26,763 bases of DNA from a virus (lineage: Duplodnaviria; Heunggongvirae; Uroviricota; Caudoviricetes). The stretch is from the IMG/VR virus record IMGVR_UViG_2606217104_000012. One strand, given 5' to 3'. Below, piece by piece: positions 2,486-3,505 of the stretch. Position 1 is the stretch's first letter, and each line of letters opens with the position of its first letter. The position numbers and the translations under genes were made by a program. The notes below the pieces were generated by a model. The model was not told the DNA's origin, searched no databases, and saw nothing but the letters and a program-made list of their open reading frames with translations.

Positions 2486-3505
2486 ATGCTTCGCCACTTA
2501 ACAGGACTCAGATTTATAGCTGCATTAATGGTTTATTTATGCCATTTAAATACAGACTATTTTGGTGTTTTTGTAAAAGAAATGTTTTCCCAGGGATTTA
2601 TTGGCGTTTCCTTTTTCTTTATTTTATCTGGCTTCATTCTTTCATATTCATATGAAGACAAGCTAAAAAATGAAGTAACAAGTAAAAGACAGTTTATTCT
2701 TTTAAGATTGGCAAGAATTGTTCCAATGCATCTATTATTAGCCATGCCATTTATTTTACTAACCATTCACTTAAAGAACTTTGATTTTTCAAAAACCTTA
2801 ACAAATATTTTATTAATGCAAAGTTGGATACCAAAGGAGGATTACTACTTCTCATTAAATGGTGTATCATGGTCTTTGTCTGATGAGCTGTTTTTTTATT
2901 TAATGTTTATTCCGTTGATTTATACATCAATTACAAAGAAAGTAATCACTGCAATATCAATTATAACTCTACTATTAACTATATATTTTTTAAAAATTAT
3001 ACAAACAGAAGAACTTAATCACTGGTTATATTATATATTCCCAGTAAGCCGCTTGGTAGAATTTATTTGCGGCATGATTATTTACGCTTGCTGGAAAAAC
3101 AGCCGACAGCAGACAGTCGACAGCCTTTTGTTTTTAATTTCACTATTACCTCTGCTAATAGCTATATATTATAGCAACAACATAAATAATAGTCTACGTT
3201 ATTCGTTATATTATTTACTCCCCATGGTAATATTCTTTACTTCATGCATCTATCTAAGAAATGGAGTCATTCATACTATCCTCAGTTCAAAAACCCTAGA
3301 GCTATTAGGGAAATCATCATTTATTTTTTATTTAATTCATCAACCCATTATATTATTTTGCTTTAAAATCTTTGGACATAACCCCGGACCACTCTATTTA
3401 ATAGCGCTCCTTGTTATAATAACCATAGTCTCAATCATACTTTATAAATTAGTTGAGGAGCCTTTAGAGCTGATGCTAAGAAAACGAATTTTAGCAGTAA
3501 AATAA
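2486..3505 (+). CDS. Integral-membrane acyltransferase family 3 protein (OafA/Oac-like putative O-antigen/LPS O-acetyltransferase); candidate lysogenic-conversion gene
   Basis: ATG at 2486 with AAGAGG RBS (the track ORF begins at an upstream TTG at 2456). About 339 aa, multi-pass hydrophobic protein with acyltransferase-3 type N-terminus (RHLTGLRFIAALMVYLCH ... FFFILSGF); very AT-rich compared with the phage genes; followed by a hairpin terminator. Confidence 0.8.
   Translation: MLRHLTGLRFIAALMVYLCHLNTDYFGVFVKEMFSQGFIGVSFFFILSGFILSYSYEDKLKNEVTSKRQFILLRLARIVPMHLLLAMPFILLTIHLKNFDFSKTLTNILLMQSWIPKEDYYFSLNGVSWSLSDELFFYLMFIPLIYTSITKKVITAISIITLLLTIYFLKIIQTEELNHWLYYIFPVSRLVEFICGMIIYACWKNSRQQTVDSLLFLISLLPLLIAIYYSNNINNSLRYSLYYLLPMVIFFTSCIYLRNGVIHTILSSKTLELLGKSSFIFYLIHQPIILFCFKIFGHNPGPLYLIALLVIITIVSIILYKLVEEPLELMLRKRILAVK

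Follow-up and report, generated by a model that had tools for sequence, protein, structure and literature searches.

Introduction

Acetylation of the O-antigen by acyltransferase-3 (AT3) proteins has been described for several phage- and host-encoded systems. In Shigella phages, oacD, the gene of a GlcNAc 6-O-acetylase, has been placed on SfII (review PMC9558356), and oacC of serotype 6 resides on an SfII-like prophage. In Salmonella, OafB protects against the tailspike of the cognate phage (PMC7448272, PMC9558356), while WbaK sets a precedent for an O-antigen acetylase that consists of the AT3 domain only (PMC9558356). Here, we analysed a 26,763-nucleotide stretch of a caudovirus (Caudoviricetes; IMG/VR record IMGVR_UViG_2606217104_000012), hereafter the window, with all positions counted from its first letter. 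Our subject is the AT3 gene at 2486-3505 on the + strand, which an initial annotation had proposed to be an O-antigen-modifying lysogenic conversion gene. We infer its substrate and phenotype from sequence, and consider it probable that the gene product is an O-acetyltransferase of the Oac type that acts in lysogenic conversion and is specific for the O128-type O-antigen.

Results

The gene encodes an AT3-only membrane acyltransferase

The open reading frame (ORF) at 2486-3505 (+) encodes 339 amino acids from an ATG, and its product is identical to WP_000943925.1. An in-frame TTG at 2456 represents an alternative start that would yield a product of 349 amino acids. Because a 1-nt upstream insertion puts this TTG out of frame in the Citrobacter orthologue, the ATG at 2486 is the conserved start. 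The frame remains open for 354 codons, compared to 173 for the longest frame found among 10,000 composition-matched shuffles. Two properties given in the initial annotation were recovered here. The GC content of the gene is much lower than that of the phage backbone (29.9% vs 53.3% for window positions 4800-26763), and the gene (+) lies on the strand opposite to the tail genes (fibre, gp48-like and baseplate J; all -), towards which it is convergent.

A Pfam search identified a single PF01757 (Acyl_transf_3) domain spanning residues 5-320 of the 339 (E = 1.4e-30; 106.9 bits at a cutoff of 31; profile positions 4-325 of 326). The protein is thus AT3-only and lacks a fused SGNH domain. It also matched PHROG 3333, annotated as 'O-acetyltransferase', with an E-value of 6e-51. 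Among 31 characterised AT3 carbohydrate acetyltransferases, the residues corresponding to H25, F41, G46 and G202 of OafA are invariant (Pearson et al., PMC7448272). The same work defined an R/K-X10-H motif in transmembrane helix (TMH) 1 and an essential RxxR motif, the latter being essential in Oac, OafA and OafB (PMC7448272). The protein studied here carries R9-X10-H20 as its R/K-X10-H motif, an FFxISG-type TMH2 motif (F44-F45-I-L-S48-G49), R74-L-A-R77 as RxxR and the transmembrane glycine G196. Within an alignment of 55 homologues, H20, F44, G49, R74 and G196 are invariant and R77 is conserved in at least 90%. Hence, no residue that is invariant or essential in the characterised AT3 O-antigen acetyltransferases is missing, which supports membership of the family.

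An AlphaFold2 model built on the 55-homologue alignment is all-helical, with a predicted local distance difference test (pLDDT) score of 92.4 and a predicted template modelling (pTM) score of 0.91. Together with about ten hydrophobic 19-mer segments in the sequence, the model is consistent with the ten-transmembrane-helix AT3 fold. Neither a PDB sequence search nor Foldseek against the PDB returned a solved relative, which fits the description of the AT3 fold as novel (PMC9833829). Foldseek against predicted viral structures gave one significant match (TM-score 0.71), a viral protein of 637 amino acids that is probably an AT3-SGNH fusion as judged by its length. NCBIfam yielded no match for the protein or its neighbours. 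Judging from the full-length profile match, the catalytic motifs and the helical model, the assignment as an AT3 integral membrane protein made in the initial annotation is virtually certain. Moreover, it is very likely that the protein acts on a surface polysaccharide. A role as a defence system was also considered and dropped, as PADLOC found no defence-family match for the AT3 protein, for two neighbouring ORFs of 190 and 57 amino acids or for the small ORF next to the tail fibre (see below).

Expression signals and selection

Upstream of the gene, a promoter-like sequence (TAGACA-17-TAAAAT, 2415-2443, +) and a ribosome-binding site (RBS; AAGAGG, 2474-2479, six bases 5' of the ATG) together occupy 2415-2479 (+). 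They lie within a leader (2325-2485), located between the remnant of an S24-family peptidase gene and the ATG, in which E. coli and Citrobacter share 94.4% identity. The corresponding value for the coding sequence is 83.2%, and the good preservation of the leader suggests a constrained promoter or leader function. Downstream, a GC-rich hairpin with a 14-pair stem (3504-3535) separates the AT3 gene from the convergent small ORF and fibre gene, and the stop codon of the small ORF sits in its loop. The hairpin was called as a terminator on the - strand, where it is followed by a T-run. By inspection, the GC stem is followed on the + strand by TTTTATCTT, and the terminator is therefore shared and bidirectional rather than specific to the AT3 gene. 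Thus, the gene has its own RBS, as initially annotated, but not the terminator of its own that had been assigned along with it.

Phase variation of the Dam/OxyR type, as for gtr and oafB, found no support. There are only two GATC sites upstream (2142 and 2273), both more than 200 nt away from the gene and far from the promoter, and one of them is deleted in Citrobacter. Comparison of the AT3 gene with its Citrobacter orthologue gave a ratio of nonsynonymous to synonymous substitution rates (dN/dS) of 0.136 at a dS of 0.70, indicating that the gene is under purifying selection.

The AT3 gene co-occurs with O128-type O-antigen genes in E. coli

The AT3 gene is present in seven of 5,426 complete E. 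coli genomes. With a wzy probe taken from the O-antigen cluster of the carrier CP52E, published as O128:H12, we detected O128 wzy in 23 genomes of the same set, and all seven AT3 carriers belong to these 23 (Fisher p = 9e-18). The carriers hold the gene, as part of a module described below, at four chromosomal sites and on at least three phage backbones, so the association does not stem from one clone. A clonal artefact is ruled out by the four different insertion sites, and a conservative count of four events still gives (23/5426)^4 = 3e-10. In the genomes examined, the AT3 gene is therefore restricted to hosts of one O-antigen type, with the linked fibre, and thus phage host range, as a confounder.

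The O128 cluster of CP52E (locus L019) contains a CatB-related (LbH) O-acetyltransferase gene at 23380-23937, and an IS3 element (14623-15785) is inserted between galF and galE, the first gene of the cluster. At the level of the polysaccharide, O128 strains have been reported to differ in their number of O-acetyl groups, with two on a hexose vs one, and this difference tracks serological reactivity (bioRxiv 10.64898/2026.03.20.713141). That study employed matrix-assisted laser desorption/ionisation (MALDI) mass spectrometry without genetics. For O128ab and O128ac, the literature searched gives serotype or in-silico labels only and nothing on their molecular basis; a link between the AT3 gene and these two forms would be speculation.

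Citrobacter orthologues are paired with O128-like Wzy proteins

Besides the E. coli protein, the matches listed contained one 83%-identical orthologue cluster, from Citrobacter, all others being at most 45% identical. All 11 named Citrobacter assemblies with this orthologue also list an O128-like Wzy accession of the same series. Identity of these homologues with O128 Wzy amounts to 55-57%, and the pairs come from at least three species and involve three Wzy clusters. The longest-record lengths of the paired entries agree, i.e. for P0026/P0146 (5,126,826; AP022389.1), P0127/P0143 (4,956,011) and AP022513.1 (5,094,093). One cluster was examined, that of C. werkmanii GCA_030646215.1 (L035, 1-10047). 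It is collinear with the O128 cluster, in the order gmd-fcl-gmm-manC-manB, LbH acetyltransferase, wzx, GT11 (a fucosyltransferase), GT2, GT, wzy and gnd, with a Wzy that is 56% identical to its O128 counterpart. Gene content thus implies that some Citrobacter strains carry an O128-like O-antigen. A decayed prophage remnant of C. portucalensis still contains an intact AT3 gene, an observation that, together with the dN/dS of 0.136, argues for retention by the host and not for carriage by active phages alone.

More distant homologues, with 35-38% identity, reside within O-antigen or polysaccharide clusters of Morganella and Vibrio. These are two of the three nearest named non-phage homologues; the third, from Aeromonas, is flanked by insertion sequences (IS) and located outside any polysaccharide cluster. 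Taken together, the exclusive co-occurrence with O128-type genes in E. coli and Citrobacter and the homologues in O-antigen or polysaccharide clusters support the O-antigen as the target, as the initial annotation had proposed.

AT3 and a distal tail fibre form a mobile module

In the contexts compared, the AT3 gene always travels with the S24 remnant upstream, the terminator, the small ORF and the distal part of a glycine-rich tail fibre. This module comprises ~2.5 kb (about 2025-4571 of the window). Its left edge maps to 2025-2034 in other E. coli contexts and to 2028-2047 in Citrobacter, while its right breakpoints (4486-4571) fall inside the fibre gene. The four E. coli sites are thrW on an SfII-like backbone (window, KSC1031 and E41), bioA-ybhB, also on an SfII-like backbone (LHM10-1 and CP52E), argW beside intS in myoviruses with DUF2612 and baseplate J (TW10590 and EH08-18-36, in the order int-AT3-fibre), and a remnant near pphA/pinE (300709). 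The module is found on another backbone in the context L013. In Citrobacter, it occupies a decayed remnant near dsbB/minCDE and also an apparently fuller phage contig (L005). The exact protein WP_000943925.1 was present on 499 contigs of a large collection; in an index of public assemblies it occupies 1,074 blocks, compared to 2,165 blocks for O128 wzy. Several of the carrier prophages are degraded; the AT3 protein is identical across the four insertion sites.

The left edge (2025-2296, -) contains a frameshifted remnant of an S24-family (LexA/CI-like) peptidase gene at ~2085-2296, annotated by PGAP in KSC1031, TW10590, EH08-18-36, LHM10-1, CP52E and 300709, which we read as a trace of the donor context. 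On the other side of the AT3 gene, the tail fibre (3696-4796, -) has 366 amino acids. Judging from the breakpoints, its N-terminal ~97 residues (4504-4796) are backbone-specific and its distal part (3696 to ~4504/4571) belongs to the module. The fibre matches PF21722 (Gly_rich_2; 1.4e-07) as well as PHROG tail-fibre families. The small ORF (3517-3696, -; 59 amino acids) overlaps the fibre gene by TAATG, indicative of translational coupling. It matches phrog_14370 (function not assigned; 8e-28), measures 59-61 amino acids across contexts, is always adjacent to the fibre and has an identical C-terminus (FIKPEDKTAQ) in Citrobacter. It is probably a minimal tail-fibre chaperone or assembly factor.

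Fibre and small ORF also occur without AT3, in AW1.7 near dacD and in the O111:H2 strain 12A at dusA; AW1.7, like 90-9281, is an O128 strain that lacks the AT3 gene. In the two contexts without AT3, the breakpoint lies exactly at the terminator, which shows the AT3 gene to be an add-on to the fibre module. At the DNA level, none of 50,697 phage records matched the distal fibre and small ORF. In LHM10-1 and CP52E (L023/L024), the AT3 region is 99.9% identical to the window vs 84.5% for the distal fibre and small ORF (3517-4510), pointing to recombination also inside the module.

Proposed function and competing explanations

In the mechanism we propose, a sigma-70-type promoter of its own would drive transcription of the AT3 gene in the lysogen, apart from and convergent with the late tail operon. 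The ten-helix protein would take acetyl from cytoplasmic acetyl-CoA via the R9/H20/R74/R77 cavity and present it at the periplasmic face; the motifs for this step are observed in the protein, and the transfer itself is modelled on published work on OafA, OafB and Oac. A sugar hydroxyl of the O128-type repeat (GalNAc/Gal/Fuc unit) would then be acetylated while lipid-linked in the periplasm, a substrate suggested by the finding that, in two genera, the AT3 gene occurs exclusively together with O128-type wzy. The resulting change of the O-antigen epitope would probably reduce adsorption of O-antigen phages, including those with the co-travelling distal fibre, by analogy with Sf6 Oac, BTP1 OafB and PhiV10. 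We regard action on the O128-type O-antigen as likely, and give phage exclusion about an even chance.

Several points weigh against an O128-specific O-acetyltransferase. Similarity to Sf6 Oac covers 155 amino acids at 28% identity and there is none to SfII_25 of phage SfII, so function is not transferable by orthology. Wherever the AT3 gene occurs, it is accompanied by one fibre type that is itself enriched in O128 (10/12 records), so part of the association could reflect phage host range and not enzyme specificity. Among fibre carriers, AT3 is present in 7/9 O128 and 0/2 non-O128 genomes, numbers that do not suffice to tell these possibilities apart. An acetyltransferase of the LbH type is encoded within the O128 cluster itself, and O-acetyl groups on O128 alone therefore do not implicate the AT3 protein. 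Moreover, the pairing of AT3 and Wzy in Citrobacter derives from accession series and matching record lengths rather than from the genomes themselves, and the acyl group could be other than acetyl. The literature searched contains no mention of the AT3 protein and nothing that links O128 to a prophage acyltransferase.

The fibre linkage is central to the explanation that the protein acylates another envelope glycan, i.e. enterobacterial common antigen, lipopolysaccharide core, capsule, osmoregulated periplasmic glucans or peptidoglycan, with the limitation to O128 arising from the host range of the fibre. In its favour, the fibre module is itself strongly enriched in O128 and also occurs without AT3, AT3 proteins act on many substrates (PMC9558356), and the IS-flanked Aeromonas homologue is not part of a polysaccharide cluster. 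Against it, common antigen, core and peptidoglycan are shared by all E. coli and would predict no serogroup limit for a module present on at least three backbones. The O-antigen is also the substrate of the characterised AT3-only genes that phages carry at this position, and the two non-O128 fibre genomes lack AT3. In addition, the Citrobacter gene, intact and under purifying selection in a decayed remnant, still occurs only in strains with O128-like Wzy. We consider this explanation unlikely. Quite improbable is a further variant, in which O128 is the target but the acyl group is not acetyl (e.g. succinyl, as proposed for IcaC), or in which the main role lies in immune or serological variation or gut colonisation. 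All characterised phage AT3-only O-antigen modifiers are acetyltransferases (PMC9558356) and the variation of O128 seen by mass spectrometry lies in O-acetyl groups (bioRxiv 10.64898/2026.03.20.713141), even though the AT3 family includes non-acetyl transferases (PMC9558356) and nothing in the sequence fixes the donor. The acetylation state of O128 tracks serological reactivity (bioRxiv 10.64898/2026.03.20.713141), in line with such a role, but on different backbones the gene stays linked to a receptor-binding fibre, which fits a role at the phage receptor.

Finally, the AT3 gene might be an inactive or unexpressed relic that hitch-hikes with the fibre module, as its position beside an S24 pseudogene and IS elements and the degraded state of several carrier prophages could suggest. 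This is very hard to reconcile with an intact ORF whose protein is identical across four insertion sites, with the dN/dS of 0.136 vs Citrobacter, the conservation of all catalytic residues, a promoter and RBS region that is better kept than the coding sequence (94.4% vs 83.2%) and the persistence of the gene while neighbouring phage genes decay. Returning to the O128-specific O-acetyltransferase, we tentatively extend this reading, at somewhat less than even chances. The AT3 protein may determine the one-vs-two O-acetyl polymorphism of O128 as a prophage-borne sub-serotype factor and may form, with the distal fibre and the small ORF, a bind-then-mask cassette that hops between unrelated backbones and att sites and follows the O128-type O-antigen across Escherichia and Citrobacter.

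The prophage and its other cargo

The structural genes of SfIV, SfII, SfI and SfV, serotype-converting phages of Shigella, share 96.5-97.6% identity with positions 4507-21791 of the window (~17 kb). This SfI/SfII/SfIV/SfV-type structural module (4800-21791, -) encodes a Mu-like baseplate, tail, sheath, HK97-like head and terminase, as judged by identity, Pfam and the annotation of KSC1031. Pfam matches within it include Phage_Mu_Gp48 (gp48-like protein, 4800-5384, -), Baseplate_J (5375-6433, -) and Terminase_4. The tape-measure ORF of the window is uninterrupted, and the strain of context L014 is nearly identical. Identity with the Sf phages begins at 4504-4507 inside the fibre gene, of which only the N-terminal ~97 amino acids are common. 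From 621 to 4504 there is no identity with SfII; it is found again in the att flank (433-621; 95%), which in SfII lies next to attP/int. The att core (436-496) matches loci annotated as tRNA-Thr (thrW) in other genomes; ARAGORN detected no complete tRNA here, and the core corresponds to a 3' fragment of thrW (436-497, -) at the int-distal end of the prophage. In KSC1031, the thrW locus adjoins paoABCD/yagP. The interval 497-3696 contains no gtrA-gtrB-gtr(type) cassette and instead holds the 190-aa and 57-aa ORFs, the S24 remnant and the AT3 gene. The prophage has the common structural module and the thrW site of the SfV group and, on these sequence features, is an SfII-like temperate myovirus at thrW with different cargo in the same slot. 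The att core next to which the initial annotation had placed the AT3 gene is therefore real; direct adjacency is not, as ~2 kb with two ORFs and the S24 remnant lie in between.

The two ORFs, at 869-1441 (190 amino acids) and 1532-1705 (57 amino acids), form a pair outside the AT3 module (869-1705, +). The longer one matches phrog_4350 (function not assigned; 3e-14), and neither has a Pfam, NCBIfam or PADLOC match. A hairpin at ~1728-1755 after the 57-aa ORF represents the terminator of the pair. The pair is present in thrW-type contexts, L012 and L013 and absent at argW, bioA-ybhB and pphA.

At the outer border, thousands of genomes carry IS3/IS1203-family transposase features that match positions 1-~467 and 1-660. 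The end of this IS3-family element (1-349, -), with transposase orfA reading leftward from ~297, abuts the chromosomal att flank and lies outside the prophage. KSC1031 aligns with the window from 350 onward only and has a yagP (LysR) fragment where the window has the IS. As KSC1031 lacks an IS at this border, the strain of the window carries an extra IS insertion at the prophage border.

A second AT-rich moron of the same prophage is a complete Kiwa defence pair (24167-25578, +; GC 33-35%), composed of KwaA (173 amino acids; PADLOC 1.9e-83) and KwaB (294 amino acids; PADLOC 2.3e-150, also Pfam PF16162). It is located on the opposite strand, between the gene for antiterminator Q (25600-25962) and the holin/lysis genes. 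An HNH endonuclease gene (21851-22300, -) immediately adjoins the small-subunit terminase gene (21230-21733), as is typical of packaging modules of the HK97-like cos type. A DUF968 protein with a putative HNHc nuclease domain is encoded at 25965-26759.

Discussion

O128 is a recurrent serogroup of enterotoxigenic E. coli (ETEC; CFA/I strains such as TW10590 and the GEMS isolate 300709), enteropathogenic E. coli and Shiga toxin-producing E. coli, and O-antigens are pursued as components of ETEC glycoconjugate vaccines. The AT3 gene is found in about 30% of the O128 complete genomes. If our interpretation is true, it would create antigenic heterogeneity that is invisible to wzx/wzy-based in-silico serotyping, offer a candidate explanation for discordant O128 serology and affect the host range of O-antigen-dependent phages. 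The module also illustrates how, in nature, a receptor-binding domain can move between backbones in one cassette with an enzyme that putatively modifies the receptor. The link to O128 and the AT3-plus-fibre cassette are new. The Oac/Gtr principle is long established, so our data extend known biology and do not overturn it, and the AT3 protein is an uncharacterised member of a well-known class of phage O-antigen acetylases.

Comparison with known systems

Its sequence context places the AT3 gene among the temperate-phage morons, i.e. putatively independently transcribed genes beside a receptor-binding gene and/or att/int. Orthology to characterised Oac proteins was rejected, by tblastn against the 50,697 phage records, which did not recover the AT3 genes of Sf6, SfII or PhiV10, and then by pairwise comparison with Sf6 Oac and SfII_25, with OacB and OacC outside the direct comparison.

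The closest phage relative is gp49 of TL-2011b, annotated as 'O-acetyltransferase' (36% identity over the full length, E = 1e-58), which like Sf6 Oac and SfII_25 belongs to PF01757. Immediately upstream of its gene lies that of a 697-aa protein, possibly a tailspike, whose pectate-lyase-like match is weak and below threshold. TL-2011b differs in phage type and host serogroup (O103:H25), and gp49 is uncharacterised and so offers no functional anchor. The Morganella morganii (P0116) and Vibrio cyclitrophicus (P0090) homologues are also AT3-only, are similar over the full length and neighbour wzx, wzy-like and glycosyltransferase genes. They are chromosomal cluster genes and not phage morons.

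Salmonella OafA and OafB (family-II GtrC, BTP1-like prophages) contain an AT3 domain with the same essential residues and, as here, are encoded outside the O-antigen cluster, oafB within a prophage Gtr operon. In contrast to the AT3-only protein of the window, they are AT3-SGNH fusions of ~600-640 amino acids with an 11th helix, and the phase-variation signature of the oafB/gtr type is not seen upstream of the AT3 gene.

Sf6 Oac (OacA) resembles our protein in being AT3-only (~335 amino acids), and its gene is likewise convergent with the tailspike gene across a terminator and located beside int/att. The argW/intS copies in TW10590 and EH08-18-36 even repeat the int-AT3-fibre order of Sf6 at the tRNA-Arg/IntS site. 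Both proteins share R-X10-H, FFxxSG and RxxR, whereas overall identity (28%) is confined to the N-terminal 155 amino acids. Sf6, a P22-like podovirus, has an endorhamnosidase as its tailspike and its Oac modifies rhamnose I of the S. flexneri O-antigen, while the prophage described here is a myovirus with a glycine-rich fibre.

The slot itself is best matched by SfII. Its gene SfII_25, presumably OacD, the 6-O-acetylase of O-antigen GlcNAc, also encodes an AT3-only PF01757 protein in the same position and convergent orientation, with a terminator between it and the preceding tail-fibre and assembly genes. The order in SfII is fibre C-terminus, assembly protein, terminator, convergent SfII_25, IS, gtrII-gtrB-gtrA, attP and int. 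The prophage of the window has no gtr genes where SfII carries gtrA-gtrB-gtrII between slot and attP, and its host O-antigen would be O128 and not of the S. flexneri type. The parallel drawn in the initial annotation between this locus and the cargo slot of the Sf phages is thus well founded, in backbone identity (96.5-97.6%), in the thrW site, in the AT3 gene that SfII has in the same slot and in the convergent oac of Sf6. As SfII_25 and our protein share no detectable BLAST similarity (best E = 0.16), the two phages captured their AT3 genes independently at the same place.

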